Origin: Deltaproteobacteria bacterium
GTDB lineage: Bacteria; Myxococcota_A; UBA9160; UBA4427
DNA: 42,811 nt
Direction of reading: 5' to 3'
Assembly: GCA_031400655.1 (NCBI GenBank)
Contig: JANNQH010000073.1
Span: 1-42,811, forward strand
Shown here: piece by piece, positions 9,134 to 32,583 of the stretch
Layout: every line of letters starts with the position of its first letter
Numbering within the stretch: position 1 is the stretch's first letter
The notes under the pieces: model-generated
The model's input: the letters and a program-made list of their open reading frames with translations, nothing else
Database searches by the model: none
What the model was told of the DNA's origin: nothing
Position numbers and translations under genes: made by a program

Positions 9134-9577
9134 ATGGCGAACTTCGTCTACACACACGCGAAGCACTTGTTCTTGACCGGCGCGCTCAACCTGTCCTCGG
9201 CGGACGTGCGGGTCGCGCTCGTAATGACGAACACGACCGCCGACACCGAGAAGGACGTGTCGACGATCTCGGCCTTCACGACGCTCGACGAGTACGACGG
9301 CGCGAACTACACCTCGGGCGGCGCGGCGCTCGCCGGCGAGTCCGTCGCGCAAGACGACGCGAACGACCGCTCGGAGTTCGACGCGACCGACCTCACCTTC
9401 TCGGCGCTCGGCGTCGGCGCGCGCCAGTGCCAGGGGGCGATCGTCTACGCCTTCGTCACCAACTTCGGCGCGAGCATCCCGATCGCGTGGATCGACACCG
9501 GCGGATTCCCCTTCACCGGGAACGGCTCGAACGTGACGATCCAATGGAACGCCGAGGGCATCGTCCAGGCGACGTAG
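9134..9577 (+). CDS. Small beta-rich virion structural protein (fibre/spike subunit type)
   Basis: 147 aa; LNLSSADVRVALV...YTSGG...FDATDLTF...NGSNVTIQWNAEGI, a pattern I recognise from phage virion proteins that precede long repeat proteins. Confidence 0.65.
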   Translation: MANFVYTHAKHLFLTGALNLSSADVRVALVMTNTTADTEKDVSTISAFTTLDEYDGANYTSGGAALAGESVAQDDANDRSEFDATDLTFSALGVGARQCQGAIVYAFVTNFGASIPIAWIDTGGFPFTGNGSNVTIQWNAEGIVQAT

Positions 9578-9745
9578 ACTTCTACACCGAAGAAGGGCCG
9601 CCTGGCGCGCGCGCGCCTCGCGAACTCCAGCCCCGGAGGGCCCGAAGAAGGAAAGGGGAGGAGCTCTCAACGGTGCGGGACCACGAGCGGGGACTACTCG
9701 AGGTGCATCCAGCCGTACTGACCTTCTCCCCGGCTACCTGAGCTC

Positions 9746-12076
9746 ATGGTCTCGCGCGGCAAGTTCACGAGCTCCGGGTCGACGCCGATCTCGCCGGCGG
9801 TTTCTGGCTCTTGGGAGCGCACCGCGGGGAACTTCTTTCGCGCGCCGCTCAACGTCTCGGGGACCAACCTCAACACGACGCGGACGAGCTTCGTCGACGT
9901 GCACGGGAACGACCTCGGCACGGACGATTGCGTCCTCGCGCAGTTCGTCTCCCCCGAACCGCTCAACGTCGACCAGACGATCACGGGAACGTTCTCGCTC
10001 GTCGTCGGCGGCTTCTCCGCGACATCGATCGACAATCTCTGGCTCGCCGTAATCGCGCGAGTCATCAAGCCCGACGGGACCGAGCGCGGCGTCCTGCTCG
10101 TGCAAACAACCGACTCGGGTGCGCTCAAGTACGGCACGACCGATCGGACTCGTATCTGGTCGGCGCTCTCGGTCACTTCGGTCGCGGCGCTCGCCGGCGA
10201 TTACATCGTCGTCGAGGTTGGCTCGCACTCAGCCGTCGCCGGCGTCGGCGCGCAAGTCACGATGTGGTTCGGCGATCCGACGGGAGCGTCGGACTCCGCG
10301 CTCACCGCCGGGCTTGCCACGACCAACGTCCACTGGTGCGAGTTCTCCCAGACGCTCACGTTCGGAGTTCCGATCCCGCCGATCACGCCGAGCGCCGCCG
10401 CGGCGCCGATCGTCGCTCCGAGCCCGTCGCTCGCGTTGCTCCTCACGCTCACGCCGAGCGCGGCTAGCTCTCCGGCGGCGGCGCCAAGTCCGACGCTCGC
10501 GTTCGGCACCGCGACGCTCACGCCGAGCGCGGCAAGTTCTGCGGCCACGGCGCCAAGTCCGACGCTCGCCTTCGGGACCGCGACGCTCACGCCGTCGGCG
10601 GCGAGCTCGGCCGCGATCGCGCCTTCGGTTGCGCTGGCGCTCGAACTCGTGCTCACGCCGACGCCCGCGACGTGGAGCGCGGCCGCGCCGTCGGCGTCGC
10701 TCGCGATGCTCCTCACGCTCAACCCGACGCCTGCGCCAAGCCCGATCGACGCGCCCTTCGTCGCGCTCGCGATGCTCCTCGAGCTCGCGCCGACGGCGGC
10801 GAGCTCGGCCGCGATCGCGCCTTCGGTTGCGCTGGCGTTCGAGCTGGTGCTCACGCCGACGCCGGCGACGTGGAGCGCGACCGCGCCCGCGTGCACTCTC
10901 GCGCTCGTCCTCACGCTCGCGCCATCGCCGGCCGTCGTGGCGCTTGTCGCTCCGAGCGTCGCCGGAAATTTTGACCTCACCCCGCAGGCGGCGAGCACCT
11001 CGCTCGAGGTGCCTGCGGTCTCGCGGGTCCTGCTCCTCGCGCCGGCCGTCTCGAGCACGGTTCTCGAGGCGCCGTCGACGTCGCTCGCGATGCTCTTGAC
11101 GCTCCCGGCGAATCCCGCGGACGTCCGGATCATCGCGCGACAACCGGCGCTCTTCCTCGAGCTCGTGCTGACGCCAGAGGCGGCGACGTTCTCGCTCCTC
11201 GCTCCCGACGCGGACGCCGACGCGCCGCTCACGCTCACGCCGGCGAGCGCGAGCACGCCGCTCGACGTTCCGGCCGTGTCGCTCCTGCGCGAGCTCGTGC
11301 TCACGCCGGCGGCCGCTCAGGCGCCGCTCGTCGCGCCCGCGGTCGACGCGCTCCTCGTGCTCACGCCGTCGCCGGCGACGTTCCAGGTCGCGGCGCCGAA
11401 TGGAGCGCTCGCACTCGAGCTCTTCATCGTGCTCGCGGGCCGCGGCGGCGCCGTGCCGTTCCTGCTCACCGCGCCGAACGTCGTCACCGTGCTCGAGGTC
11501 CTGCTCGGCCAGGCCGGCCAGCCCGTGCCGGGAACGGTTCTCGTCGCGCCGCCCGTCTCGCTCTCGTTCGAGATCCGGCTCACGCCAGACCCGGCGGCGG
11601 TCGTGCTCGTCGCTCCGCCCGCTGGCTCGACTGGGGCGCTCACGCTCTCGCCGGATCCGGCCGTGGTGGACCTAGAGGCGCCGAGCGTCTCATTCGGCGG
11701 CGATCTCGTCCTGACGCCCGACCCGGTCCCGCTTGCGGCCCTCGCGCCTGCGGTCCTGATCTTCCCGCCCGTGCTCCTGCCGTCGCGCACGCCCTCGCCG
11801 GCGACGTTCTCACTCGTCGCCCTGCCCGTGCTCGTGACGATGCCCGGGATCTCCCAGAACGTCCTCGGCTCCGGGCCCGGCGTCGTGCTCTTGATCTCGC
11901 CGACGGTCTCCCTGCTCTTCTGGACGAGCACCGCGCGACCCTCGAGGACGCTCGACACGCGGCGCGCGCAGGCGCTCGGGCTCGATCGAGCGCTCGCGCA
12001 GGCGCCCGGCGGAACCCGGCTCGCGCGCACGCTCTCGCTCGACCGCTGGCCTCCAGTGACCGGCCCGGGCCCTTGA
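9746..12076 (+). CDS. Repeat-containing fibre/scaffold protein: N-terminal beta-sandwich domain + ~22 tandem 20-24-aa repeats
   Basis: 776 aa; repeats of the form L(T/V)LTPxPAxxxxxAPxVxL from ~aa 212 to 725; N-terminus SPEPLNVDQTITGTF...PDG resembles a CocE/PepX C-terminal jelly roll. Confidence 0.75.
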   Translation: MVSRGKFTSSGSTPISPAVSGSWERTAGNFFRAPLNVSGTNLNTTRTSFVDVHGNDLGTDDCVLAQFVSPEPLNVDQTITGTFSLVVGGFSATSIDNLWLAVIARVIKPDGTERGVLLVQTTDSGALKYGTTDRTRIWSALSVTSVAALAGDYIVVEVGSHSAVAGVGAQVTMWFGDPTGASDSALTAGLATTNVHWCEFSQTLTFGVPIPPITPSAAAAPIVAPSPSLALLLTLTPSAASSPAAAPSPTLAFGTATLTPSAASSAATAPSPTLAFGTATLTPSAASSAAIAPSVALALELVLTPTPATWSAAAPSASLAMLLTLNPTPAPSPIDAPFVALAMLLELAPTAASSAAIAPSVALAFELVLTPTPATWSATAPACTLALVLTLAPSPAVVALVAPSVAGNFDLTPQAASTSLEVPAVSRVLLLAPAVSSTVLEAPSTSLAMLLTLPANPADVRIIARQPALFLELVLTPEAATFSLLAPDADADAPLTLTPASASTPLDVPAVSLLRELVLTPAAAQAPLVAPAVDALLVLTPSPATFQVAAPNGALALELFIVLAGRGGAVPFLLTAPNVVTVLEVLLGQAGQPVPGTVLVAPPVSLSFEIRLTPDPAAVVLVAPPAGSTGALTLSPDPAVVDLEAPSVSFGGDLVLTPDPVPLAALAPAVLIFPPVLLPSRTPSPATFSLVALPVLVTMPGISQNVLGSGPGVVLLISPTVSLLFWTSTARPSRTLDTRRAQALGLDRALAQAPGGTRLARTLSLDRWPPVTGPGP
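10380..11915 (+). repeat. Degenerate tandem coding repeats (~60-72 bp units)
   Basis: e.g. acgctcacgccgagcgcggc...gcgccaagtccgacgctcgc recurring; near-identical blocks at ~10600-10680 and ~10795-10880. Confidence 0.85.
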
Positions 12077-12110
12077 GTCCTCCGCGGCCGTTCTCCATGC
12101 TCGGGCGACC

Positions 12111-12611
12111 TTGAAGGCCCTCCGCCAATACGACGCCGGCGTGGTCTTGAAGATCCCGCTCCGGGATCAAGACGACGAGATCATCGACCTCGACGGAACC
12201 GAGACGGCCTGGTTCCTGCTCGAGGCGCCGTCCGGTCACCGCAAGCGCTTCGCCGCGACCGTCGACGAGACGACCGAGACGATCGAGTACACGACCGAGA
12301 CGCTCACCTTCGACGAGTGGGGAACCTGGCGCCTGCAGGCCGAGGTCATCGGAACCGGCTACCACGTCCGGACCGCCGTCCTCCTGCTCGAGGTGCAATC
12401 GAACCTCGACGCCCCCAGGCTCGTGCTCCGGCCCGATCCCGCCATGCTCGTGCTCCGCGCCGTCTTCCCGTCGCTCGACTACGTCGAGTCCGAGCTCGTC
12501 TTCGGCGTCGAAATGGCCGACGGTTCCTTCGGCGTCGTCGAGCTCGACGACGGCAAACTCCCCGTGCTCCTCTACGACGGCACGACCGCGCTCGTCGAAG
12601 TTTTCCAATGA
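12111..12611 (+). CDS. BppU-N-like Ig-fold adaptor protein carrying one fibre repeat
   Basis: D.GVVLKIPLRDQDDEIIDLDG...PSG...IEY...GTWRLQAEV pattern, followed by LVLRPDPAMLVLRAVFPSL. Confidence 0.6.
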   Translation: MKALRQYDAGVVLKIPLRDQDDEIIDLDGTETAWFLLEAPSGHRKRFAATVDETTETIEYTTETLTFDEWGTWRLQAEVIGTGYHVRTAVLLLEVQSNLDAPRLVLRPDPAMLVLRAVFPSLDYVESELVFGVEMADGSFGVVELDDGKLPVLLYDGTTALVEVFQ

Positions 12612-13258
12612 GTCAAGCGAAGCCCCTCGTCACCCGTCCGGTTCCCGGAAGCGCCGTCGACAAGATCGTTCGCGAGGGTCTGTGGACCGCGCCGCAGGAC
12701 TGGCGAGCGGGGACTCGCGTCCTCACGAACGAGACGCCGACGAGCGCGCTCGACTGGCGCTCCGCCGGCGGCGACGCGACGCCGGTCGACCTTCCGAGCG
12801 CGGCGCTCGACTGGCCGCTGTTGCGCCGGACCGGCCTCGTCGTATGGGACGTGATCGCCGACTTCGCCTCGACGCTGGCGACGCCCGAGACCTTCAACTG
12901 GGAGCTTCGCGCGGAGAACGCGGCGCTCTCGACGCCGTTCGTGATCGTCCAAACAATGCCCTCGGTCGTGTGGGGCGCCAACTGCAACCTGCTCTTCGAG
13001 GCGAAGCTCCGCGTGTGCGCGGCCGCGAACGCGGCGCCGCGATTCATCGTCGAGACGCGAACTCGGATTATCGACTTCGTGACGGGTGTCGCGGGCATGG
13101 ACGAAACGAACTACGGCTATCCGCTCGGCATCGACGCGCGCACCGCTCGCGAGCTCTCGTGGCGCTTCACCAAGGGCGGCGCAGGCGGGAAAATCATCAC
13201 GTTCCAGGGGATCGGTTGTTATCAACCGCTCGCGACAACCGGAGGCTGGGCTCAATGA
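12608..13258 (+). CDS. Hypothetical beta-rich protein (216 aa, MSQAKPLVTRP...)
   Basis: ATGA-coupled on both sides within the 9134-14339 operon. Confidence 0.7.
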   Translation: MSQAKPLVTRPVPGSAVDKIVREGLWTAPQDWRAGTRVLTNETPTSALDWRSAGGDATPVDLPSAALDWPLLRRTGLVVWDVIADFASTLATPETFNWELRAENAALSTPFVIVQTMPSVVWGANCNLLFEAKLRVCAAANAAPRFIVETRTRIIDFVTGVAGMDETNYGYPLGIDARTARELSWRFTKGGAGGKIITFQGIGCYQPLATTGGWAQ

Positions 13259-14271
13259 CGACCGTAGTTCCGACCTTCTCCGACCAAGTTTCAGGGGAAG
13301 AGCTCTGGTGTCGATTCGACTATTACCAGAACCCGACGCCCGTACTCAACAGCGCCGGCGCGCGCGCGAACCCGTGCCTCTTCTTCGGCCACACCGGCGG
13401 CGGAACGCTTCAAGATCACCGCGCGGCGCGCGACAGTGGCGACACGCTCTTCTGGCACCTCTTCCGCTGGCTCCTCCAGAATCAAGGCGCGCAGAACTCG
13501 GAGGCGCTCGTCGGCCCGGCCTTGCATTGGGACCTGTGCGGATACACGAGCGGCCAGCGCAAGCACAAGAACACAATCCGGCGAACGCGCGCGATCTATA
13601 CCCCGGAGTCGATTCTCGACTGGTTGCGGATCGTCGCGCAGATCAAGGCGCGGCACGCGATCTACGGGTTCGACCCGGACAAGTGCGGCCACCTCGGCGA
13701 GTCCTATCGGGCGATGATCTCGCAACTCGCTCTGCTCGGCTGGCCGCCGGCACTTGCCGGCGCGCAGGACTCGACCTTCCGGTTCAATATCTTCGCGCAA
13801 GGCCCGATCGACTTGCGCACGTTTTCTGGCGTCGACTTCTTTCACTACTCGCGACACGGCGAGATCACCGGCGTCCGCGCCGACGCCGGCGACTCGAACG
13901 GCGGAACCGGAGGCCTCGAGTGGGACCTCGTTCCGACTTGGATCAAGAACCGGCTTTCGATCCGTTGGTATTACGAGCAGGGTCTCGTCGGCGGACACGT
14001 TCCGACCTACATCGCCTTCCCGCTCGCCGGCGACGGCGTGCAACCGCTCGGCAACGCCTTGCACGTCGGGAGCGATCCGCACGACTCGAGCCAGGCCGCA
14101 CTGCTCGCGGCGGCGATGGCGGCCGCGGATTGCGCGCACGAGGTCGAGGTCCTGCTCGGCGCGCCCTACGCCTCCCTGATCAACGCGCAATATCCGAGCG
14201 AGCCGACCGACCCTGTTGTCCTCGCGCAGTTCAACCGCTTCGCCGACTTCATGGCGCCGTTCGGCGTCTAG
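13255..14271 (+). CDS. Alpha/beta-hydrolase-fold (esterase-like) protein, 338 aa
   Basis: FFGHTGGG (HGGG-like oxyanion motif), YGFDPDKCGHLGESYRA (HSL-like nucleophile elbow), late DPHDS histidine. Confidence 0.6.
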   Translation: MTTVVPTFSDQVSGEELWCRFDYYQNPTPVLNSAGARANPCLFFGHTGGGTLQDHRAARDSGDTLFWHLFRWLLQNQGAQNSEALVGPALHWDLCGYTSGQRKHKNTIRRTRAIYTPESILDWLRIVAQIKARHAIYGFDPDKCGHLGESYRAMISQLALLGWPPALAGAQDSTFRFNIFAQGPIDLRTFSGVDFFHYSRHGEITGVRADAGDSNGGTGGLEWDLVPTWIKNRLSIRWYYEQGLVGGHVPTYIAFPLAGDGVQPLGNALHVGSDPHDSSQAALLAAAMAAADCAHEVEVLLGAPYASLINAQYPSEPTDPVVLAQFNRFADFMAPFGV

Positions 14272-14273
14272 CT

Positions 14274-14339
14274 ATGTACGTCGAGATCACCAAACTCGAC
14301 GGGACGATCGTCCGCTGGGTGGCGGTTCCGCGTCCCTGA
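14274..14339 (+). CDS. Micro-ORF, 21 aa (MYVEITKLDGTIVRWVAVPRP)
   Basis: Fills the gap between two genes (2 nt after a TAG, 4 nt before the next ATG) with typical codon usage. Confidence 0.45.
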   Translation: MYVEITKLDGTIVRWVAVPRP

Positions 14340-14343
14340 TTCG

Positions 14344-14982
14344 ATGACCGGCCCGATCAAGGTCGAGGCCGACCTCCGCGGGTTCAACGCTTGGGCCGCG
14401 GCCGCGGTCGGGCGTCAGGTCCCGTATGCGACCAAGAAGGCGCTCGACTCGGTCGCGTTCGAGGCGCGCGACGCAGTGCGGGCCGGATTGCATCCGCCGC
14501 GCTTCGAGATCCGCTCGACCTGGGTCGCGAAGGGGATCACGGTCGTAAAGGCGCGCAAGGAGGACTATCCGAACGCGACCGCGGTCGTCGGATCTCGCGA
14601 CGAGTTCATGGTCCAGCAAGAGACCGGCGGCGAGAAGGCTCCGAAGTACACCGGCAAGCTCGCAATCCCGACGCGCGCAGGACAGAAGCTCAAGGAGGTC
14701 CGGCGCACGGCGTCGGGCAAGATCCCCAAGCGCGGCCGGCCGAAACCGTTGATCGCGGCGGGAAAGGCCTTCATCGACAAGGCGACCGACGAGGTCCGCT
14801 TGCGCCAAGAGTCCGCGAGTGGGCCCGGTCGCGCGCCGCCGATCTTCTTCCTTCGCGAGAAGGCGCACCTGAAGCCACGGTTCGAGTTCCGCGAGACCGT
14901 CGAGGGCGTCGTCGCGCGCCGCTACGGGGTGATCTTCCGAGAGCAACTCGAGCGCGCGCTCAAGCCACGCGGCGCGAAGTAG
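14344..14982 (+). CDS. Phage neck/tail-completion protein (lambda gpZ-like)
   Basis: Basic 212-aa protein, QVPYATKKALDSVAFEAR...KPRFEF...FREQLERAL. Confidence 0.6.
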   Translation: MTGPIKVEADLRGFNAWAAAAVGRQVPYATKKALDSVAFEARDAVRAGLHPPRFEIRSTWVAKGITVVKARKEDYPNATAVVGSRDEFMVQQETGGEKAPKYTGKLAIPTRAGQKLKEVRRTASGKIPKRGRPKPLIAAGKAFIDKATDEVRLRQESASGPGRAPPIFFLREKAHLKPRFEFRETVEGVVARRYGVIFREQLERALKPRGAK

Positions 14983-17709: not shown

Positions 17710-18447
17710 ATGGAGCGCAAGCTCCTCGGGATTCGAGCCTACGCGCGCCACCGCGGCGTCTCGCCGGCTGCGGTTCGCAAGGCACGCGATACCGGCCGGA
17801 TCGCCGCGGCGTTCGTCAAGTCGGGCGGCCGGAAGAAGTTGATCGACGTCGAGGTCGCCGATCGGCTCTGGGACGCGAACACCGATGCCGCGCAGCAACG
17901 CCCGGAGGCCGCCGCCGGTTCCGCTTCTTCGACCTCATCCGAGACGGCAAAACCGGAACACCCTCCCGCCGCACCGCCGTCCGCGGCACCGTCCGGGCCG
18001 TCCGCGGAAGAAATCCGCTCACCGTCCGCGGATTCTTCCACGCCGGCGTCGACCGCGCCGAACGGCCGCAAGGGCCCGACCGTCAAGCCCGGGCAGGACC
18101 TCTTCGGCGAAACGTTGCCGCCGAAGCTCGAGGCCGCGGCCGCGGCGGAGGGGAAGGACGAGAAGAAGGGCCCGAGCTTCCTCGACGTGCGCACGACGAG
18201 CGAGACCTGGAAGGGCGAACTCATGCGCCTGCGCTACATGCAAACTGCCGGAGAACTCGTGAGCGCCGCGCGCGCGCGCGAGCTCTTCTTTCGGTTCGCT
18301 CGCAACGCGCGCGACAAGATCCTCGCGATCCCGGTTCGCGTCTCGCACGACTTCGCCGCGGAAGAGGATCCGATCAAGGTCGAGCGTCGACTGAAGAAGG
18401 AGCTCGAGCGCGCGCTCGAGTCGCTCGCCAGTGACCTTGACCTCTGA
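17710..18447 (+). CDS. terS: Terminase small subunit (Nu1-like)
   Basis: N-terminal wHTH GIRAYARHRGVSPAAVRKA; C-terminal GELV...RDKILAIP; overlaps terL. Confidence 0.85.
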   Translation: MERKLLGIRAYARHRGVSPAAVRKARDTGRIAAAFVKSGGRKKLIDVEVADRLWDANTDAAQQRPEAAAGSASSTSSETAKPEHPPAAPPSAAPSGPSAEEIRSPSADSSTPASTAPNGRKGPTVKPGQDLFGETLPPKLEAAAAAEGKDEKKGPSFLDVRTTSETWKGELMRLRYMQTAGELVSAARARELFFRFARNARDKILAIPVRVSHDFAAEEDPIKVERRLKKELERALESLASDLDL

Positions 18448-20416
18448 CCTCGCACCCGACTCGGCGCTCTTCGTCGCCGGCGAAGCGTCGCTCGCGCAGG
18501 CTTTCCGCGACGGCCTTCGTCCCGACGAGGAGCTCTCGCTCTCGGAGTGGGCCGACCGATATCGCGAGCTCCCGAAGACGAGCCCGGAGCCGGGACGCTG
18601 GCACACCGACCGCGCGCCGTACTTGCGCGAGCCGATGGACGCGCTCTCGCCGGGTTCCGAAGTGAACGAGGTCGCGCTTCAATTCGCGGCGCAACTTGGG
18701 AAGACCGAGATCCTCCTCAACTTCCTCGGGCAGATTGCGCACCAAGCGCCGGGCCCGACGATGCTCGTCTGGCCGACCGACAAGGTCTGCAAGAAGAACT
18801 CGCGCCTCCGCGTCGAACCGCTCTTCGACGATTGCGAGGTGCTGCGCGGGAAGCTCAAGGACAAGAACGTCCGCGACGGCGGGAACAACCGACTCGAGAA
18901 GACCTTTCCCGGCGGCGTGCTGATTATCTGCGGCGCGAACTCCGGGAGCGACCTGCGCTCGGTCCCGTGCAAGTACGTCCTCATGGACGAGATCGACGGC
19001 TATCCGCTCGACGTCGACGGCGAGGGCGATCCGATCTCACTCGTCGAAGCGCGGACCGCGAACTTCCACGGCTACAAGCTCCTGAAGTGTTCGACGCCGA
19101 CGTTCGAGGGGACGAGTCGAATCGAGCAGGAGGTGAAGAAGGGCGACTGCCGCCGCTACGAGGTGCCGTGTCCGCATTGCGAGCACTACCAATTCCTCGA
19201 GTGGAAGAACCTTCGATGGGAGGACGGCAAACCGAAGACCGCGGCCTATGCCTGCTCGCACTGCGGGACGCTGATCGAAGAGCGCTTCAAGCCCGGCATG
19301 CTCGAGCTCGGCCGTTGGGTTGCGACCAACCCGAACGCGACGCCCGGAGTCCGGAGCTACTTGCTCAACCGACTCTATGCGCCGCTCGGCTGGAGCTCGT
19401 GGGCGCAGTGCGCGCGCAAGTGGATCGAGAGCGAGCACGACAAGGAGAAGCGGCGCGCCTTCGTGAACCTCGTCCTCGGCGAGACCTGGCGCGACGGCGG
19501 CGTCGTGCCGAATTGGGAGCGGCTCTGGAATCGGCAAGAGGACTACCGCGAGGGAACGGTCCCGCGCCGCGGGCTCGTGCTCACCGCCGGCGTCGACGTC
19601 CAGAAGGACCGAATCGAGGTCGAGGTCGTCGCTTGGGGACGCGGGCTCGAATCGTGGTCCGTCGACTACGCGGTTCTCGCCGGGCTCGTGCTCGAGGACG
19701 AGGTCTGGGGCGAACTCGATCGATTGCTCGCGCGCCAGTACGCGCACGAGGGCGGGAACCTGCCGATCCGGATGCTCGCGATTGATACCGGCTACGAGTC
19801 GAACAAGGTCTACGGGTGGGTTCGAAAGCACTCGCCGCACCAAGTCGTCGCGGTCAACGGCGCGCGCACGAACCTCCCGCTCATCGTCGCGCAACCGACG
19901 GCGGTCGAAGTGACCGAGGGCGGGAAGAAGCGCCGGCGCGGCGTCAAGGTCTGGCCGATCGGAACGGGCCTGATCAAGACCCAGGTCTATTCGTTCCTCG
20001 AGCAGGAACTCCCCGGCGGCGAGGGGAAGCTCCCGCCGCCGGGCTTCATGCACTTCCCCAAGCGGGACGAGGAGTGGTTCCGACAACTCACGGCCGAGGC
20101 TTTTCGGACGCGCTCGATCGGCGGACACCGGCGGCGCTCGCATTCCTATTGGGAGAAGACCCGCGAGCGGAACGAGGCCCTCGACTGCCGGGTCTACGCC
20201 CGCGCGGCGGCCGCGATCGCCGGCGTCGACCGCTACGAGGAGCGGCACTGGCGCGAGATCGAGGACGCCCTCGGTCTTGCGGCGGCTCCGGCCACTCCGC
20301 AGGATGGCCCGGGAACAAGGCCCGAGCCGGAGCGGAGACCCGAGAGCGCGCAACCCGCGCCGCCCTCGGACACGCCGCGGCCGAGCGGCTTCCTATCGCG
20401 ATGGCGTACACGCTAG
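18431..20416 (+). CDS. terL: Terminase large subunit, lambda GpA family
   Basis: LSEWAD...PYLREPMD...AAQLGKTE (Walker A), DEIDGYP, STPT, LTAGVDVQ, RNEALDCRVYA. Confidence 0.97.
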   Translation: MTLTSDLAPDSALFVAGEASLAQAFRDGLRPDEELSLSEWADRYRELPKTSPEPGRWHTDRAPYLREPMDALSPGSEVNEVALQFAAQLGKTEILLNFLGQIAHQAPGPTMLVWPTDKVCKKNSRLRVEPLFDDCEVLRGKLKDKNVRDGGNNRLEKTFPGGVLIICGANSGSDLRSVPCKYVLMDEIDGYPLDVDGEGDPISLVEARTANFHGYKLLKCSTPTFEGTSRIEQEVKKGDCRRYEVPCPHCEHYQFLEWKNLRWEDGKPKTAAYACSHCGTLIEERFKPGMLELGRWVATNPNATPGVRSYLLNRLYAPLGWSSWAQCARKWIESEHDKEKRRAFVNLVLGETWRDGGVVPNWERLWNRQEDYREGTVPRRGLVLTAGVDVQKDRIEVEVVAWGRGLESWSVDYAVLAGLVLEDEVWGELDRLLARQYAHEGGNLPIRMLAIDTGYESNKVYGWVRKHSPHQVVAVNGARTNLPLIVAQPTAVEVTEGGKKRRRGVKVWPIGTGLIKTQVYSFLEQELPGGEGKLPPPGFMHFPKRDEEWFRQLTAEAFRTRSIGGHRRRSHSYWEKTRERNEALDCRVYARAAAAIAGVDRYEERHWREIEDALGLAAAPATPQDGPGTRPEPERRPESAQPAPPSDTPRPSGFLSRWRTR

Positions 20417-20604
20417 CCGACCTCACCGCCCTCGAGGACGCACTGAAGACCGGCGCTCGCCGCGTGAAGTTCGCCGACCGCGAGGTCGAGTTCCGCTCGC
20501 TCACGGAGCTCCGCGGGATCATCGAAGGCCTGCGCCGCCAACTCGGCCTCTCCGACGGCGGGCTGAAAGTTTCCTACGTCAAGACGCGCAAGGACCTCGA
20601 CTAG
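20401..20604 (+). CDS. gpW-like head-tail joining protein
   Basis: MAYTLADLTALEDALKTGARRVKFADREVEFRSLTEL; lies between terL and portal. Confidence 0.85.
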   Translation: MAYTLADLTALEDALKTGARRVKFADREVEFRSLTELRGIIEGLRRQLGLSDGGLKVSYVKTRKDLD

Positions 20605-22098
20605 GTGAAGCTCTCTCGATTGATCGACTCGGTCGTCGAGCTCGTCTCCCCTGCAGCCGGCCTTCGTCGCGCGCGGGCGCGCGCCGCGGTCGAGACGATC
20701 CTCCGCCACTACGAGGGCGCCTCGCACTCGCGCCGCACTGCGGGTTGGATTGCTCCCTCGACGAGCCAGAACGCCGCGAGCTACGGGAAGCTCCAAGTCC
20801 TGCGCGATCGCTCGCGCGACATCATCCGGAACAACCCCTGGGCGACGAACGCTTGCGAGCTCTACGAGTCGGAGATCGTCGGGACCGGGATCGTTCCGAC
20901 CTTCGTGCACAAGGACAAGAAGGTCGTGCTCGCGGCGACCGAGCTCTGGAAAGCGCATTGCGGAACGACCGCGATCGACGCGGACGGCGCCGGCGATATC
21001 TACGCGCTCCAAGCGCTCATGGTGCGCACGATCTTCGAGTCGGGCGAGGTGATCGTCCGCCGTCGGCGTCGCCGCTTGAGCGACGGCCTCCCGCTCCCCT
21101 TCCAGCTCGAGCTCCTCGAGACCGATCACCTTGACGAGTGGCGCGACACGCTGCGGCTCCCCAACGGCGGAAAAATCTCGGCCGGGATTCAACTCACGCC
21201 GCTCGGCGCGCGCGAAGGCTACTGGCTCTATCCCGAGCATCCGGGCGAACTCGCGTGGGTGGCGCAGACTTCGACGCTCGTTCCCGCGAGCGAGGTGCTC
21301 CACGCCTACCGGCGCAAGCGCGCGAAGCAACTCCGCGGGATCCCGGGCCTCGCGGCCGTGCTCGCGAAGCTCCGCGACCTCGACGAGTACGAGGACGCCG
21401 AGCTCCTCGGGAAGAAGATCGCGGCGTGCCTCACGGCCTTCATTACCGACCCCGCCGAGGGCGAGATGCCGACGACCGGCGTCCAACAGAAGAACGTCCT
21501 CCCGGAGTCGCTCGAGCCGGGCGCGCTCGTCAACCTGCCGGGCGGGAAGTCGATCACCTTCTCGACGCCGCCGATCTCGCAAGGCTATCCGGACTTCGTT
21601 CGCGCGAACCTGCGCGCGATCGCCGCCGGCGTCGGCGTGACCTACGAGGCGCTCACCGGCGACTGGTCCAACGTCAACTATTCGAGCGCGCGAATGGGCT
21701 TCATCCAGAACGCCCGCGCGGTCGACCGCTTCCGCTGGAACGTCGTCGTCACCCAGGCCCTCAACCCGATCGCCGCCTGGTTCGTGCTCGCGGCCGTGCT
21801 CGCCGGCGAGCTCCCCGACGAGCCGCTCGGCGTGCTCTGGACTCCGCCGAGGCGCGCGATGCTCGACCCGTCGAAGGAGGTCCCGGCTCGCCGCGACGCC
21901 GTCCGGGCCGGCTTCTCTTCGCCGTCGGAGATCCTGCGCGAGGACGGCCAGGATCCCGACCAAGTCTGGACCGAGGCCGCCGCCGACTTCGAGAAGTTGC
22001 GCGCCCTCGGGCTCCACGTCGAGAGCGATCCGTCGGTTCCGATGCGCGGCGGACCGGCGCCTGTCGGCGACGCTTCGACCGACGCCCCCAAGCCCTAG
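20605..22098 (+). CDS. Portal protein, lambda gpB family
   Basis: YEGAS...LRDRSRDIIRNNP...QLRGIP...YEALTGDWSNVNYSSAR...DPSKE. Confidence 0.97.
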   Translation: MKLSRLIDSVVELVSPAAGLRRARARAAVETILRHYEGASHSRRTAGWIAPSTSQNAASYGKLQVLRDRSRDIIRNNPWATNACELYESEIVGTGIVPTFVHKDKKVVLAATELWKAHCGTTAIDADGAGDIYALQALMVRTIFESGEVIVRRRRRRLSDGLPLPFQLELLETDHLDEWRDTLRLPNGGKISAGIQLTPLGAREGYWLYPEHPGELAWVAQTSTLVPASEVLHAYRRKRAKQLRGIPGLAAVLAKLRDLDEYEDAELLGKKIAACLTAFITDPAEGEMPTTGVQQKNVLPESLEPGALVNLPGGKSITFSTPPISQGYPDFVRANLRAIAAGVGVTYEALTGDWSNVNYSSARMGFIQNARAVDRFRWNVVVTQALNPIAAWFVLAAVLAGELPDEPLGVLWTPPRRAMLDPSKEVPARRDAVRAGFSSPSEILREDGQDPDQVWTEAAADFEKLRALGLHVESDPSVPMRGGPAPVGDASTDAPKP

Positions 22099-22113
22099 GG
22101 GGGTTTCCTACTA

Positions 22114-22150
22114 TTGCACGCCGCCCCTTGGGACGGTCATCCTCGCGGGC
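22114..22150 (+). promoter_or_regulatory. Leaderless-type promoter of the protease-capsid gene
   Basis: TTGCAC-N18-CATCCT-N7-GTG. Confidence 0.55.
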
Positions 22151-24223
22151 GTGCTGAAGACCCGCGATCTCAAGGTTCGCCCTCGGGAGTGGACCGGGCG
22201 GATCCGCTCCGAGAGCTTCGACGAGTCGAAGGGGACGTTCGACGTCGTCGTCACGACCGGCGAGGCGATCCTTCGAAACGACTACATGCTCTGGGACGGG
22301 CCGTACTACGAGGAGCTCGGCCTGAAAGAGGGCGAGGTCCGCCTCGCGCGCTTGAACTCTGGGCGCCTCAACCTGCTCGACAATCACGGCTACGCGAACG
22401 GCGCCGATTGGGGCCCGTCGAAGTATCAGACCGGAAACGTTGTCGGCGTCGCGCTCGCAAACCGCGCTCGCGTCGAGAAGATCGCCGGCGCCGACGCGCT
22501 TCTCTCGACGTTCCAGGTTTCGCGCCGCGACGAGCTCGCCGGACTTCGAACCGACCTGAAGGACGGCGTCGTCGCGCAGTGCTCGCCCGGCTACCGCGTC
22601 TATCTCTACGAGATGACGATAGCGCCGCTAGACGGCACGCCGCCGACGTTCCGCGCGGTCGATTGGGAGCCGACCGAAGTCTCGCTCACCGCAGTTCCGG
22701 CGGAGGAGGGCGCGCACGTTCGCACCTCCGCGCAATCCGAAAACCCGTGCCGCGTGATAGATCGGCGGCCAGACACCCAACAGCGCACCATGAAACGAAA
22801 AGTCAAGAACGCGGCCGGAGTCGAAGTCGAAGTCGAAGTTCCCGAGACGGAAGGCGACGGCACGCGCACCGCGGTCGAGACGCCGCCGGCACCGGTCGCC
22901 GCTCCCGCGGCTCCGAGCGACGCCGAACGCGCGGCCGCGAGCGCGCAGGGTGCGACGAGCGAGCGCGCGCGCGCGGAAGAGATCCGCACGCTCACGCGCA
23001 CCGCAAAACTCCCCGCCGAGTTCGGCGACAACCTCGTGAAGACCGGCACGCCGATCGAGAAGGCGCGCGCCGCGATCGTCGAGGAGTGGGCGAAGCAAGG
23101 AGCACCGGCCACGCCGGCGACGCCTTCCGACACGACGCGCGCGGAAGTGCGCGAAGTCGGGAACGAACTCGACGCGATGCAAGTCGCGCTGATCCATCGC
23201 GGCGCTCCGCACCTAGTCCCGGTCGACAAGCTCACGCCGCAGGCGCGCTCGTTCGTGCAGTTCTCCTTGCTCGACCTGGCTCGTCACCTGCTCGAGAAGC
23301 GCGGCGAGCGCACGCGCGGGATGGATCGCTCGAAGATCGTCGAGCGCTCGCTCATGGCGGCGAGCGAGTTCCCCGAGCTCCTCGCGAACACGGCGAGCAA
23401 GTCGCTCCGCGATCAATACGAGATCATGCCGAACACCTGGCAAGCGTGGTGCCGTCGCGGCACGCTGCCGGACTTCAAGATCATGAGTCGTGTCGGGCTC
23501 TCGGGCGCGCCGACGCTCGAGGAGGTTCCGGAGACCGGCGCGATCAAGCGCGGCGCGCTCTCGGAAATGGCCGAGAAGTACCGCCTGAAGACCTACGGGA
23601 AGATCGTCCCGATCTCGCGTCAGGCGATCATCAACGACGATCTTTCCGGGTTCACGCGAATCCCGGCCGCGTTCGCCGTCTCGGCGTCGACGCTGATCGA
23701 GGACCTCGTCTATTCAATCCTCACGACCAACGCGGCGATGGCCGACACGGTCGCGCTCTTCCACGCGACGCACAAGAACCTGAGCTCGGGCGCCGGCTCG
23801 GCGCTCGCACTCGCGGGCCTCGGCGCGGCGCGCACGCTGCTTCGCAATCAAACCGGCCAGGACGGGAAGTACCTGAACCTGAACGCGGCCTACATCATCG
23901 TCCCGGCGGCGCTCGAGACGACGGCCGAACAACTGACGCTGCCCTTCGGCGCGGTCGTCGCGACGAACATCAACCCCTGGGCCGGTCGCCTGAAACACAT
24001 CACGCAACCGCGCCTCGACGTGGCCTCGGCCATCATCTGGTTCGCGGTCATCGACCCGGCCTTCGGCGACACGATCGAAGTGGGCTTCCTCGAAGGACAG
24101 AGCGGGCCGCGAATCGAATCGCGCACCGGCTTCGACGTGGAAGGCCTCGAGATCAAGTGCGCGCTCGACGTCGGCGCGAAGGCGATCGACTGGCGCGGAA
24201 TGGTCAAGAGCGCCGGCGCCTAG
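22151..24223 (+). CDS. Fused prohead protease / major capsid protein
   Basis: Protease motifs LLDNH...SPGYRV...WEPTEVSLTAVPA; linker; capsid part DFK...TYGKIVPISRQAIINDDL...AIDWRGMVK. Confidence 0.93.
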   Translation: MLKTRDLKVRPREWTGRIRSESFDESKGTFDVVVTTGEAILRNDYMLWDGPYYEELGLKEGEVRLARLNSGRLNLLDNHGYANGADWGPSKYQTGNVVGVALANRARVEKIAGADALLSTFQVSRRDELAGLRTDLKDGVVAQCSPGYRVYLYEMTIAPLDGTPPTFRAVDWEPTEVSLTAVPAEEGAHVRTSAQSENPCRVIDRRPDTQQRTMKRKVKNAAGVEVEVEVPETEGDGTRTAVETPPAPVAAPAAPSDAERAAASAQGATSERARAEEIRTLTRTAKLPAEFGDNLVKTGTPIEKARAAIVEEWAKQGAPATPATPSDTTRAEVREVGNELDAMQVALIHRGAPHLVPVDKLTPQARSFVQFSLLDLARHLLEKRGERTRGMDRSKIVERSLMAASEFPELLANTASKSLRDQYEIMPNTWQAWCRRGTLPDFKIMSRVGLSGAPTLEEVPETGAIKRGALSEMAEKYRLKTYGKIVPISRQAIINDDLSGFTRIPAAFAVSASTLIEDLVYSILTTNAAMADTVALFHATHKNLSSGAGSALALAGLGAARTLLRNQTGQDGKYLNLNAAYIIVPAALETTAEQLTLPFGAVVATNINPWAGRLKHITQPRLDVASAIIWFAVIDPAFGDTIEVGFLEGQSGPRIESRTGFDVEGLEIKCALDVGAKAIDWRGMVKSAGA

Positions 24224-24327
24224 GCCGACGCCCCTCAAGAAATTCTCACCCGTGAAAGGGCGGAGAATCGGCCGGGAGCGCAAAGGCTCCCGGCCCCTTC
24301 CGCCCGCGAACCCAAGGAAAAGCAGTC

Positions 24328-24663
24328 ATGGCATCGAACTACGTCGGACCGAAATCGCCGATCACCATTCCCGCGCCCGCGGCCGTCATCGCCGGGCAGG
24401 CGATCCTCGTCGGGACGATTGTCGGAATCTGCGGCGCGGCCGCCGGCTCCGGCGACCAACTCGCGCTCGAGGTCGAGGGACAATTCACCGTCCCGAAGGT
24501 CTCGGCGCAGGTTTGGACCGCCGGCGCGAAGCTCTACTGGGACGATACGGCCAAGCTCTTCACGACCGTCTCGACCTCGAACACGCTCTGCGGCTTCGCC
24601 GGGCTCGCGGCCGCGAACCCGAGTTCGACCGGTCTCGTCTGCCTCACCGGACAGGTCGCGTAG
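24328..24663 (+). CDS. DUF2190 family capsid cement/decoration protein
   Basis: NYV...G...EGQFTVPK...GAKLYWD; follows the capsid gene; AAGGA RBS. Confidence 0.85.
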   Translation: MASNYVGPKSPITIPAPAAVIAGQAILVGTIVGICGAAAGSGDQLALEVEGQFTVPKVSAQVWTAGAKLYWDDTAKLFTTVSTSNTLCGFAGLAAANPSSTGLVCLTGQVA

Positions 24664-24671
24664 ACCCGGGC

Positions 24672-24998
24672 ATGGGGTGGCCGGAGATCCTCGACACTTG
24701 TAACCGGATCGTCCGAAGTCCTGGAGTCTTCGGCGAGACGGTCACCTATCGGCCGAGGGTGGGATCTCCGGTCACGATCACCGCGGCCTTCTCGGAGGAA
24801 TACGAGGAGGTCGCGTCGGACTCGAACCTGACCGTGGTTTCGGCGCGCCCGAACGTGCTCCTGCGGCTCGCCGATCTCGCCCTCGAACCCGTCGAAGGCG
24901 ATCGGCTCGACTGCCGCGGCCAGGCCTGGGCCGTCGAGGAGTCGCGCACTGACGGGACCGGGACCTCCCGCGTCTTCCTGCGCAAGGTCGCGCCATGA
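24672..24998 (+). CDS. Head-tail joining protein (gpFII-like)
   Basis: FGETVTY...P..GDRL...DGTG; position. Confidence 0.7.
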   Translation: MGWPEILDTCNRIVRSPGVFGETVTYRPRVGSPVTITAAFSEEYEEVASDSNLTVVSARPNVLLRLADLALEPVEGDRLDCRGQAWAVEESRTDGTGTSRVFLRKVAP

Positions 24999-25600
24999 GT
25001 TCCACGCCGGAACCGCGGGAAGAGCCCGAGCGGCGCGATCGCCGCGAGATCCGCGCCGCCGTCGTCGAACGCCTGCGCGGCTTGCACCTGGACTTCGGGC
25101 AACGGGTCTACCAGAACCGGATCCGCCCGCTCTGGCCGAAGGGCCTGCCCACGGTCGTTATCTACACCCTGCGCGAGGAGGTCGAGGTCGCGAACGTCGC
25201 CCCGCGCCAATACGAGCGCACGCTCGAGCTCGTCGTCGAGCTCTGCGCCAAGCTCCCGGCGCCGGCGGACGGCTCGCTCGACGTGGTCCAGACCGGCGAC
25301 GGGCTCGACGACCTGCTCGACGGGCTCGCGCGCGAGGTCGAGGAGCGGCTTGAGCGGGATCAAACCCTGGGCGGCCTCGTTCAAGACCTCCAGCACAAGC
25401 GCTTCGAGTTCGAGCCCGTCGACAACGGCGAAGAGCGCTTCGCTTTCGCGCGCCTCTTCGAGTCGATCACTTACTACACGCCGGCGCCCGAGCGCCCCGA
25501 AGCGGGATTCGACCCGCTCCGGAGTGTAGAGTCGAGCCTCCAAGTGGGCGGGCCCGACGGCCTCGAAGTCCGCGACCGAACCGTCCTCAATCCAACGTGA
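24995..25600 (+). CDS. Tail terminator / tail completion protein
   Basis: REIRAAVVERL...RVYQNR...LP.VVIYT...DDLLDGLAREVEERL; position before the sheath. Confidence 0.7.
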   Translation: MSSTPEPREEPERRDRREIRAAVVERLRGLHLDFGQRVYQNRIRPLWPKGLPTVVIYTLREEVEVANVAPRQYERTLELVVELCAKLPAPADGSLDVVQTGDGLDDLLDGLAREVEERLERDQTLGGLVQDLQHKRFEFEPVDNGEERFAFARLFESITYYTPAPERPEAGFDPLRSVESSLQVGGPDGLEVRDRTVLNPT

Positions 25601-25803
25601 ACACCTCGCCTTCCTTCCGCGTCAAGATCCCCGCCGGCGTCCTTCTTCGGGACCCGGAGAGCGGGCGGATCGTCACGACCGGCGAGTCGGTTCCGCGCGA
25701 CAACTTCTGGGCGCGGCGCCTCGCCGCCGGCGAAGTCACTGAGCTCGAGGACGAGCCCGAGGCCGCACCCGAAACCGACCGAACCGTCTCCCTGGAGAAC
25801 TAG
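25597..25803 (+). CDS. DUF2635 family (Mu gp38-like) protein
   Basis: PAGVLLRDP...GESVPRDNFWARRLAAGEV. Confidence 0.8.
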   Translation: MNTSPSFRVKIPAGVLLRDPESGRIVTTGESVPRDNFWARRLAAGEVTELEDEPEAAPETDRTVSLEN

Positions 25804-25805
25804 CC

Positions 25806-27263
25806 ATGCCGATCGACTTCGCCGAAATCTCGAGCACGACCCGGACGCCGTTCGTTTTCGTCGAGTTCGACGCCTCGCGCGCGGCGACGGGAGTCCAGGC
25901 GCAACCCTACAAGGTGCTCCTGGTTGGGCAACGCCTCACGACCGGCACCGTCGCGGCAAACATTCCGACGCGAATCCAGAACGCCGACCAAGCCGCGCTC
26001 TACTTCGGCATCGGGTCGCAACTCGCCGGCATGGCGAAAGCGCACTTCGCTAACAACAGCTCGACGGAGACCTGGGCGCTCGGCGTCACCAATCCCGCGG
26101 GAGCTTCCGCGACCGGGACGATCACCTTCGCCGGCACCGCGACCGAAGCCGGCACCGTCGCGTGTTACGTCCAAGGCCGGCGCTACGCGCTCGCCTGCCC
26201 GATCGGCACGACCGCGGCCGCGCTCGCGACGGCGCTCGTCGCCGCGCTCGAGACCTCGCTCATGGTGACGGGCGCCGCCGTCGGCGGCGTCGTTACCTTC
26301 ACCTCGCGCCACGTCGGAGTGATCGGAAACGATGTCGACCTCCGCGTCTCGTACCAGGACGGCGAGCGAGTGCCGTCCGGGATCACCGCAACGGCGGCCG
26401 CGATGTCGGGAGGCTCGGGCGACGTGACGCTCTCGACGCCGCTCGGGCAAATCGGGGATCAATGGTTCAACGTGATCGTGGTCCCCTTCACCGACGCGAC
26501 GAACCTCACGACGCTCGAGACCGAGCTCGCCTCGCGCGCGAGCGCTGCGCGCCATATCGGCGCGGTCGGCGTGTCCGCGGCAACCGGCGCTCTCGCGACG
26601 CTGGCGACGCTTGGCAACACGCGCAACGCGCCGCGCTCGTCGATCATCGGAACGAACCTCTCGCCGACGCCGCCCTGGGAGTTCGCCGCGGCGCAAGGTG
26701 CCGTGATCGCCAAGTACGCGGCGATCGATCCCGCGCGCCCGTTCCAGACCTTGCCGCTCGTCGGCGTGCTCGCGCCGCTCGCGAAGGACCGCTGGACGCA
26801 GGCCGAGCGCAACTCGCTCCTGTTCTCCGGGATCTCGACGTTCACGGTCGCGGCGGACGGGACCGTTCAAATCGAGCGGCCGATCTCGACCTACAAGACG
26901 AACCCGGCCGGCGGATCCGATCCGGCATGGCTCGACTTGAACACGCCCCTGACGCTCGACTTCCTGCGCTTCGACTACACGAACCTCGTGACGACGCGCT
27001 ACGCGCGCCACAAGCTCGCGAACGACGGAACGAACTTCGGCGCCGGCCAGGCGATCGTGACGCCGTCGCTCATGCGCGCCGAGCTCGTCGCGCGCTTCCG
27101 CGCATGGGAAGAGCTCGGCCTCGTCGAGGACTTCGAGCAGTTCAAGCAGGACCTGATCGTCGAGCGCAACCGCCAGGACTCCTCGCGGCTCGACGTCCTC
27201 ATGCCGCCGAACCTCGTCAACGGTCTCCGCGTCTTGGGGACGAAAATCGCCTTCATCCTGTAG
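25806..27263 (+). CDS. Tail sheath protein (Mu gpL-like)
   Basis: PFVFVEFD...FGIGSQLA.M...DPARPFQTL...ERNSLLFSGIST...RHKLANDG. Confidence 0.95.
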   Translation: MPIDFAEISSTTRTPFVFVEFDASRAATGVQAQPYKVLLVGQRLTTGTVAANIPTRIQNADQAALYFGIGSQLAGMAKAHFANNSSTETWALGVTNPAGASATGTITFAGTATEAGTVACYVQGRRYALACPIGTTAAALATALVAALETSLMVTGAAVGGVVTFTSRHVGVIGNDVDLRVSYQDGERVPSGITATAAAMSGGSGDVTLSTPLGQIGDQWFNVIVVPFTDATNLTTLETELASRASAARHIGAVGVSAATGALATLATLGNTRNAPRSSIIGTNLSPTPPWEFAAAQGAVIAKYAAIDPARPFQTLPLVGVLAPLAKDRWTQAERNSLLFSGISTFTVAADGTVQIERPISTYKTNPAGGSDPAWLDLNTPLTLDFLRFDYTNLVTTRYARHKLANDGTNFGAGQAIVTPSLMRAELVARFRAWEELGLVEDFEQFKQDLIVERNRQDSSRLDVLMPPNLVNGLRVLGTKIAFIL

Positions 27264-27304
27264 CGCCGCTCACGCGCGGACTCTGACCAGCAAGGACTTC
27301 GAAC

Positions 27305-27670
27305 ATGCCGAGCAAGAACCTCCGGGGAGGCCTCCTCTCCCTGAAAATGAATGGCGAGATCCTCGACGCGCTCGGGAACTTCGACTACTGCCTCGCGACT
27401 CCAAAGCGCGAGGCCGTCGTCGGAGCGGATCGCGTGCACGGGTTCTCCGAGACGCCGCAGGTCCCCTACATCGAGGGCGAGATCACCGATCGCAAGGACC
27501 TCGATCTCCGCGCGCTCTTCAACGCGACGAGCGTCACCGTGACGCTCGAGCTTCGAAGCGGGAAGACCGTCGTGCTCCGCGAAGGCTGGTACGCCGGCGA
27601 GGCGAAGGTCTCGACCGAGAAGGGAACGGTCTCGGTCCGCTTCGAGGGGATCTCCTGCGAGGAGCTCTAG
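27305..27670 (+). CDS. Tail tube protein (Mu gpM-like)
   Basis: REAVVGADRVHGFSETP.VPYIEG...VRFEG. Confidence 0.9.
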   Translation: MPSKNLRGGLLSLKMNGEILDALGNFDYCLATPKREAVVGADRVHGFSETPQVPYIEGEITDRKDLDLRALFNATSVTVTLELRSGKTVVLREGWYAGEAKVSTEKGTVSVRFEGISCEEL

Positions 27671-27673
27671 GCC

Positions 27674-27979: not shown

Positions 27980-28110
27980 CCCGGGTCCTGCACTTCGGCC
28001 GCTCTGATCTCTACAAGCTCGACGCGGACGAGCTCGCGCGCTGGCTCGAAATCGCGCGCACCCTGCTCGAGCGCGAATCCGCCGCGGCGCGCGGCCCAAC
28101 CGAAGAGTAG
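27947..28110 (+). CDS. -1 frameshift extension of the tail assembly chaperone (gpE'/GT-like)
   Basis: -1 frame reads PSDWLECLGWIARVLHFGRSDLYKLDADELARW (GpE'-like HF/W...EL..W); start coordinate is approximate. Confidence 0.65.
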
Positions 28111-28131
28111 GATCCGACCGAGGAGGCTCCC

Positions 28132-29727: not shown

Positions 29728-29731
29728 GGCC

Positions 29732-32559: not shown

Positions 32560-32583
32560 GCCTCGGAGCGTAGGCTCGTCCCC
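32548..32583 (+). promoter_or_regulatory. Leaderless-type promoter of gp46
   Basis: TTCCAG-N17-TAGGCT-N7-GTG. Confidence 0.5.

Follow-up and report, generated by a model that had tools for sequence, protein, structure and literature searches.

Chain-like phage fibres, in which bead dimers are strung on a rope, were first revealed by cryo-EM in 2023 and have been published for GP4 (in 2023), VP1, Bas63/Sf14 and A1002 (PMC13730344, PMC12609058). In the Pseudomonas podophage A1002, 11 gp40/gp41 dimers stand in tandem on the nozzle-rope protein gp39, each forming an augmented beta-sheet with the rope, whose N-terminus is the distal tip (PMC13730344). In the whiskers of Bas63/Sf14, the N-terminal 'rope domain' of each Ig-like collar has two dimers wrapped around it, and the authors call these whiskers homologous to GP4 Fiber I (PMC12609058). 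The wing of Bxb1 consists of gp30 as base, gp31 as arm and gp33 as brush, and gene 30 is dispensable (PMC12646305). Here we analyse a six-gene cassette on contig JANNQH010000073.1 of a Deltaproteobacteria bacterium (assembly GCA_031400655.1), which with a probability of about 0.8 builds a chain-like 'beads-on-a-rope' accessory fibre. The contig, one of 969 in its assembly, was analysed whole (42,811 bp, GC 64-74%) and is referred to below as the window; it carries a temperate SfV-like myophage. The cassette and the parts of its rope protein are as follows.

9134-9577, + strand: bead, a 147-amino-acid (aa) protein of the phrog_644 family
9746-12076, + strand: rope protein, 776 aa
9746-10375, + strand: rope head, residues 1-210, an all-beta jelly roll
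10385-11821, + strand: putative docking repeats of the rope, residues 214-692, about 22 units
11822-12076, + strand: C-terminal tail of the rope, residues 693-776, ending in the conserved motif ...LDRWPPxTGxG
12111-12611, + strand: 166-aa protein, TTG start
12608-13258, + strand: 216-aa protein, its start overlapping the preceding stop by 4 nt
13255-14271, + strand: 338-aa alpha/beta hydrolase, carbohydrate-esterase-like
14274-14339, + strand: 21-codon micro-ORF, ATG start, an open frame only

A sequence-only reading of this DNA had described six co-oriented genes, and the open reading frames (ORFs) are present as it described them, all on the + strand and tightly packed, with 4-nt overlaps at two junctions. 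The same reading had offered the locus as an undescribed system, a claim that the published fibres do not allow. GP4 Fiber I (Ralstonia podophage, PDB 8JOU) shares the bead fold (Z 8.8), a rope encoded by a separate gene, and the gene order, with the bead gene at the front and, after it, genes that bear repeats and one for a small adaptor. It differs in carrying five dimers per fibre in a podophage, as against about 22 units in a myophage, and in docking on the tail by the 93-aa adaptor gp77, whereas the anchors here are candidates only. A1002 has beads of 147 and 171 aa and tandem dimers on a rope, at ~24 rope residues per dimer (our estimate from the printed domain ranges), near the 22-residue unit found here. 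However, its rope is part of the nozzle and its bead proteins are two, whereas here there is a free rope with a lectin-like head and one bead gene; its dimers number 11 against about 22 units, and the likeness is one of description, A1002 being absent from the PDB matches. Bas63/Sf14 share the bead fold, a contractile-tailed phage and dimers strung on an extended segment, but their rope is a collar extension at the neck with two dimers, in contrast to a separate 776-aa protein with a probable baseplate link. The relative closest to the bead, in sequence as well as in fold, is gp31 of the Bxb1 wing (mycobacteriophage, PDB 9D93), and the wing is likewise a non-essential accessory tail appendage with genes after the main tail genes; gp31, however, is only 106 aa long, with no counterpart to the bead's first ~30 residues. 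What is new here is the occurrence in an SfV-like temperate myophage, a rope whose unit count is double that of the longest fibre solved, and a rope unit at the C-terminal end of a baseplate wedge protein.

The bead, the rope and their predicted complex

Scans of five cassette proteins against Pfam, NCBIfam and PHROGs gave a single match, that of the bead to phrog_644 (function unknown) at E 3e-16, with residues 1-146 falling on profile positions 4-142 of 174. The bead has 494 homologues in a large protein collection, all of them unnamed. Its AlphaFold2 (AF2) model, built on a 47-row alignment, has a predicted local distance difference test (pLDDT) value of 95.8. When the bead-family profile was compared with PDB sequences, one match was obtained, Bxb1 gp31 'tail wing arm', at E 9.7e-6. 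Foldseek of the bead against the PDB found nothing at E<=0.001, the best E being 0.016; the fold comparison scores below (root-mean-square deviation, rmsd) are from the VIA second look.

9d93_Ra, Bxb1 gp31: Z 10.5, 103 of 105 residues aligned, rmsd 2.3
8jou_a, GP4 gp80: Z 8.8, 120 of 136 residues aligned, rmsd 2.9
9c39_K, Sf14 neck (whisker) chain: Z 7.1
9h4p_BD, HFTV1 tail protein domain: Z 6.5
6hhk_C, A511 gp105: Z 6.0
9mt4_N, Bas63 connector (whisker) chain: Z 5.8
Antibody-like rows: Z 3.4 or less

Chain 8jou_a was confirmed as GP4 gp80. On its predicted structure, the bead shares the fold seen in the gp80 and whisker subunits of chain-like fibres. As a single domain, this fold is also present in ~500-aa structural proteins of flagellotropic phages, namely J7FA76 of Agrobacterium phage 7-7-1 and A0A2L0V0N6 of Atu_ph07 (BFVD; TM 0.74-0.75 over the bead).

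The repeats of the rope, like the bead fold and the gene linkage described below, were established by computation. Tandem Repeats Finder detected periods of 66-69 nt in the rope DNA at 10424-10887, and in the protein repeat units can be cut by eye from residue 213 onwards. Autocorrelation gave 501 periodic residues with a period of 22, that is about 22.8 units. A hidden Markov model (HMM) made from 19 hand-cut units recovered 22 stretches in residues 214-692, 19 of them at i-Evalue <0.001 and three degenerate. The ~22 repeats that had been read from the sequence are thus borne out by two counts. The unit, of ~22 residues, has the consensus L-T-P-x-P-A-x5-A-P-x-V-x-L-x3-L.

The AF2 fold of the whole rope was built on an 8-row alignment. 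In it the head (residues 1-210) has block means of 57-91, and residues 211-776 all lie below pLDDT 50 when folded alone. The head resembles galactose-binding and carbohydrate-binding module (CBM) jelly rolls, the VIA matches being 8yzn_A at Z 12.0, the PepX C-domain 6nff_A at Z 10.6, CBM15 1gny_A at Z 8.2, and CBM36 and CBM4-2 at Z 6.9. The sugar-binding-type fold found in the cassette is the rope's own N-terminal head. Two proteins, P0122 and P0123, have the same head, rope and C-terminal end motif as the rope of the window, and in P0124-P0128 the same head is joined to other repeat types or to enzyme-like proteins. In P0125, P0126 and P0128 it is fused to ~20-22-residue repeats that are Gly/Ala/Thr-rich, not Pro/Ala/Leu-rich. 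Several rope 'flavours' may thus share one head. The head probably lies at the distal end, and the C-terminal tail is a candidate virion anchor, by analogy, because of the polarity of the A1002 and Bas63 ropes.

The complex of two beads with two repeats of the rope, residues 281-324, was predicted with an interaction prediction score from aligned errors (ipSAE) of 0.87-0.88 in three runs, which had at least 95% of contacts in common, the partner pLDDT being 66-69. Three controls scored 0.00-0.01. Multimer prediction of the bead with repeats, proposed earlier as a check, thereby came out in favour of binding (0.88 against 0.01 for the best control). In the model, rope residues 298-324 contact each of the two bead copies at its N-terminal segment and its last strands, and both copies touch the rope symmetrically; the score rates the partner only and not the bead-bead interface. 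The mark used for these scores was passed by 58 of 80 solved complexes and by 2 of 110 mismatched pairs, a calibration that holds only roughly here. Binding of the bead to the rope is supported by this model, which we take as support for likeness plus compatibility and not as proof. Its spacing suggests roughly one dimer per about one unit (~22-27 residues). It had been proposed that each repeat templates one copy of the 147-aa subunit; that the repeat protein carries many copies, the number of repeats setting the length, agrees with the model, but a dimer and not a single copy would sit on each repeat.

In the proposed fibre, each ~22-residue rope unit, contributing two short strands, would be clasped by one bead dimer via beta-strand augmentation. 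A filament could hold up to ~22 dimers (~44 beads), and its length would follow the unit count. The jelly-roll head, of carbohydrate-binding-module type, would stand at the free end and the conserved C-terminal tail would point towards the virion, with the anchor most likely at the baseplate, where the last stretch of the wedge protein is a single rope unit. The role of adaptor would perhaps fall to the 166-aa protein, and the esterase and the 216-aa protein, co-transcribed with the rest, would perhaps act on the same surface glycan. We infer the polarity of the fibre, its anchor site and the role of the glycan.

A different assembly was considered, in which the repeat region by itself folds into a fibre of the beta-solenoid type, the 147-aa protein being no more than an adaptor at the base or a chaperone. 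The untrimmed AF2 coordinates of residues ~320-650 do align to leucine-rich repeat and beta-helix proteins (Z 7-9, rmsd 4-7 A), and the fold of the 147-aa protein is found in single-site baseplate proteins such as A511 gp105. However, the pLDDT of residues ~320-650 is 23-44, the complex model lays one unit across the bead dimer with high confidence, and the rope region is conserved beside beads across loci while the head varies, with a period of 22-23 recurring in 31 neighbours. We regard such a solenoid as very unlikely.

Linkage of bead and rope genes in other phages

We collected 53 viral loci with a bead homologue at 30-66% identity, some of them near-duplicates; they are designated here by L and a number. 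A jackhmmer search seeded with the repeat region retrieved 38 proteins, nearly all of them one or two genes from the bead, and one seeded with the rope head domain retrieved none from these loci. A blind periodicity scan of 617 proteins of at least 140 aa placed 33 above all 111 shuffled controls, mostly with a period of 22-23. Periodic proteins made up 31 of 228 within 3 kb of the bead as compared to 2 of 332 farther away (Fisher p 5e-11, a value that overstates the case because the loci are not independent, some being near-duplicates). A rope-like neighbour within 3 kb of the bead was present in 37 of the 53 loci, so that the gene-neighbourhood survey also proposed earlier yielded a conserved bead/rope pair. 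Estimated unit counts among the relatives range from about 6 to about 42, the ~22 of the window being high and not the highest.

The cassette stands at varied sites: it follows portal, capsid or Dit genes, or RecT, or lies between the genes of lysin A and lysin B. From these varied gene contexts it behaves as a mobile module. In the satellite phage MiniFlayer (L001, genes 6-8), a 'hypothetical' bead homologue of 33% identity follows the capsid gene and precedes the gene of a 1376-aa protein. Gordonia phage Gibbles (L002, genes 36-37) has a bead homologue, also 'hypothetical' and of 33% identity, between lysin A and lysin B, where it adjoins a 'minor tail protein'. In the closest myophage relatives (L017, L038/39 and L040), the bead gene stands where the baseplate module ends, ~1 kb downstream of the tail-fibre gene. 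Directly after the bead in two of these (L038:10447-11781 and L040:10444-11772) is a ~443-aa protein of phrog_19870 (function unknown) with a signal-peptide-like start. It contains a Cys-x-Ala-x-Arg stretch, a candidate sulfatase signature. Enzyme genes seem to travel with bead cassettes.

In GP4, gp79 (L060:8548-9525, minus strand), a 325-aa protein directly after gp80, has Gly-x-Gly strand-like repeats of ~20 residues, and on this pattern may be the GP4 rope; neither gp78 nor gp79 was found in the PDB by sequence. In Bxb1, the last ~45 residues of gp30 (L071:6031-7521) hold, by eye, a Pro-Asp-Pro-Ala... stretch like a rope unit, and a bead-on-strand arrangement may likewise hold the gp31 arm. 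At BLAST level, a Bxb1-type tail wing found no support as the identity of the cassette: an arm is present, but tblastn found no gp30-like base (FN3 plus D-Ala-D-Ala carboxypeptidase) and no gp33-like polyglycine brush. Relatives of gp30, gp32 and gp33 searched for in the window at tblastn E<=1 gave chance matches only.

Several points weigh against a beads-on-a-rope fibre. The phage is known from its contig alone, and no Ig-like collar was identified. GP4 gp80 was missed by the bead profile at sequence level; kinship with the GP4, Bas63 and Sf14 beads is by predicted fold alone, Bxb1 gp31 being the only one reached by sequence. The complex score may show likeness rather than binding of this pair, since solved look-alikes exist, and the model covers a single rope fragment. 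As the rope alignment had 8 rows, low pLDDT in the repeats speaks only weakly for disorder, and the solenoid matches of the untrimmed repeat model were given little weight, its coordinates being of low confidence. Of the 53 loci, 16 have no rope-like neighbour, and 8 of those 16 are cut within 3 kb of the bead gene. In the window, the cassette adjoins a repressor-like gene outside the tail module, and the rope-like stretch of the 166-aa protein is below scoring (E 0.3).

The position beside a repressor-like gene bears on whether the cassette is part of the virion at all, or is a lysogenic-conversion or secreted/surface module expressed from the prophage, as its place outside the structural cluster, between opposite-strand early genes and the repressor-like gene, might suggest. 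All structural relatives of the bead at Z>=5 are nevertheless virion components (phiKZ gp139 stands just below that line, at Z 4.5), the cassette of related phages belongs to head or tail modules, and no signal peptide was seen at the N-terminus of the 147-aa protein, by eye only. A non-virion module is accordingly given hardly any weight.

A rope-like unit at the end of a baseplate wedge protein

In PHROG scans of the window proteins, the head is lambda-type and the contractile tail Mu/SfV-type. The genes are listed below, together with the single rope-like unit found outside the cassette.

Start 17710: small terminase (TerS), PHROG
Start 18431: large terminase, PHROG
Start 20605: portal, PHROG
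Start 22151: protease fused to capsid protein, PHROG
Start 24328: decoration protein, gpD-like, PHROG
Start 25806: sheath, PHROG
Start 27305: tube, PHROG
Start 28132: tape measure, PHROG
29732-34864: baseplate genes, PHROG
34802-34861, + strand: single rope-like unit, wedge residues 244-263 (the last 20), repeat HMM
34874-36079: tail fibre, PHROG

The cassette had been placed away from the head/tail cluster of a phage that already has a fibre; this agrees with the genome, in which the cluster runs from 17710 to 36079 and includes a tail-fibre gene. The terminase genes begin 3.4 kb downstream of the cassette, and an opposite-strand gene block separates the cassette from the tail module. With this gap and this block, 'stand-alone' is a fair term for the cassette.

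The baseplate wedge protein (phrog_203, gene 34073-34864) ends in 20 residues that read as a complete rope unit. When the repeat HMM was run against the 48 window proteins, the wedge was the only non-rope match (E 1.5e-6, residues 246-262). The window repeat HMM proved too narrow elsewhere, matching one rope and one tag, and therefore a locus-specific HMM was built from the rope of L017; with it, the L017 wedge homologue's C-terminal end came top of 27 proteins (E 0.0027). The wedge homologues of L038 and L040 have similar tails, by eye. In at least 40 cultured-phage wedge homologues, among 43 records, the alignment ends at query residue 230-243 in all those listed, and none of the 43 records is among the 7 phage records with a bead homologue. 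In the host phylum, 9 of 400 genomes have wedge homologues and none of the 9 has a bead match; their 13 wedge matches end at or before residue 243, except one weak match to 258 with an internal stop. This pattern of wedge tails suggests that a bead dimer docks on the baseplate, and we infer the way in which the docked dimer would tie the rope to it. The tail-fibre and bead genes of L017 flank the gene of a 221-aa protein (L017:8762-9427) that ends in two rope-like units, one of which the window repeat HMM matched at E 0.0014 among 1110 proteins.

The same bead-rope assembly might instead be mounted at the neck, as a whisker or collar, or on the capsid. Neck whiskers are the only solved myophage examples, bead homologues stand just after portal or capsid genes in L033, L028, L018, L049 and MiniFlayer, and in Streptomyces phage Wakanda rope-head homologues are encoded between the genes for capsid and head-tail adaptor. 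On the other hand, the cassette follows baseplate and fibre genes in the closest myophage relatives, the wedge proteins of the window and of L017 end in a unit like that of their own phage's rope, and the 48 window proteins include none that was seen to be collar-like and to bear a rope extension. A neck or capsid mount is on balance unlikely, and a baseplate mount is preferred.

A broader idea starts from the wedge tail, namely that rope units are portable address tags and bead dimers a universal connector, the fibre being tied to the wedge's unit of its own flavour. We hold this to be doubtful at present. If it is true, other virion proteins or enzymes with a unit could dock likewise, and bead-and-tag would be a general exchangeable docking code for phage appendages, with the unit count setting fibre length.

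Companion genes of the cassette and meaning of the finding

The 166-, 216- and 338-aa proteins were searched against cultured phages (tblastn) and IMG/VR, and none was found; no homologue was detected in the 53 bead loci at tblastn E 1e-4, and the repeat HMM gave no scoring rope unit in any of the three. No evidence was found that they ride on the fibre. The 166-aa protein has three close homologues. It had been called BppU-like, a label that could not be sustained: neither the protein nor its 3 homologues and 3 analogues have a Pfam match at E<=1, PF10651 BppU_N included, and it has no PHROG or NCBIfam match. The Atlas lead is weak, a cluster at rank 23 with a score of 0.87, in which 13% of members carry BppU_N. 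By blastp it is weakly like small proteins that follow ropes in L026 (3e-4), L038/39 (0.005) and L051 (0.056), and its gene is placed after the rope as that of gp77 (8jou_D, 93-aa adaptor) is in the GP4 bead cluster. By this analogy the 166-aa protein is a plausible candidate adaptor. The 216-aa protein has no family, phage, viral-contig or PDB match, and in Atlas it meets only unnamed viral clusters (0.89). Compared with PDB sequences, the 166-aa and 216-aa proteins had matches at chance level only.

The 338-aa protein had been labelled an alpha/beta hydrolase, and at family level the label holds. Its family has 48 representatives at E<=0.001, and the family profile matches PDB esterases (esterase 4zrs_A at 2.2e-10, and acetyl xylan or carbohydrate esterases at about 8e-6, among them acetyl xylan esterase 6xyc_A). 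PF20434 BD-FAE is found in 11 of 32 members, the window's own protein having no Pfam match. By family profile, the protein probably belongs to a carbohydrate-esterase-like alpha/beta-hydrolase family. As judged by alignment columns, it keeps Ser150, Asp186 and His276, the putative catalytic triad, and HTGGG, a motif of the HGGG oxyanion type. The nucleophile elbow (residues 148-152) reads GESYR, where at least 90% of the family has GxSxG, and the activity may be altered.

It is conceivable that the appendage consists of bead and rope only and that the 166-aa, 216-aa and esterase genes are passengers on the same transcript. This would fit the lack of homologues of the three genes in the 53 bead loci, cultured phages and IMG/VR, the lack of a scoring rope unit, and an esterase family without context, weak partial matches in 7 of 400 genomes of the host phylum giving no gene context. 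However, the genes are tightly packed with 4-nt overlaps, a weakly 166-aa-like small protein follows the rope in L026, L038/39 and L051, the GP4 cluster has a small adaptor gene, and other phages have virion-borne esterases, such as phi24B gp84 (see also PMC11654681). We judge passengers to be a real possibility, at somewhat less than even odds.

The cassette has no match among cultured phages by blastn. Its GC content at third codon positions (GC3) is 0.82-0.97, matching other genes of the phage; that of the bead gene, 0.97, is the top of the genes compared (major capsid protein 0.86, sheath 0.90, tube 0.89). The gap from the bead gene to the rope gene gave no support for an attenuator or terminator, the 174-nt fold having a z of -0.43 and no terminator-like site being found there. 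No homologue was found for the micro-ORF at 14274-14339. The DUF6441 protein at 14344-14982 falls in a PHROG named 'minor tail protein'. It was set aside as a seventh cassette member, since in phages ZRG1 and AcaML1 its homologues are surrounded by non-structural genes, preceding ParB, methylase and terminase genes, and the PHROG name therefore looks doubtful. In L016 a DUF6441 homologue lies downstream of the bead cassette.

The opposite-strand genes of the window encode a methylase, a ParB-like and a repressor-like protein. Minus-strand ORFs cross both contig ends (1-1112 and 42253-42811) and match successive stretches of a single DNA-methyltransferase profile, phrog_67 (positions 117-291 and 267-350). 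With this ORF split over both ends, the contig resembles a complete circularly permuted phage genome.

If the proposed fibre is correct, phrog_644 and many 'hypothetical' repeat proteins gain a testable role. For annotation, Pro/Ala-rich 22-residue repeats beside a ~145-aa gene would have to be read as ropes, not as low-complexity noise. The locus would also be a simple system for asking if unit number rules fibre length, as it has one bead, one rope and a 20-residue baseplate tag. Of most interest is the wedge tag, and with it the idea of rope units as docking addresses. The beads-on-a-rope fibre itself would be a widespread mobile two-gene cassette, occurring in 53 viral loci in head, neck, tail and lysis contexts. 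It would extend to temperate SfV-like myophages, whose ropes greatly exceed in length any that have been solved.

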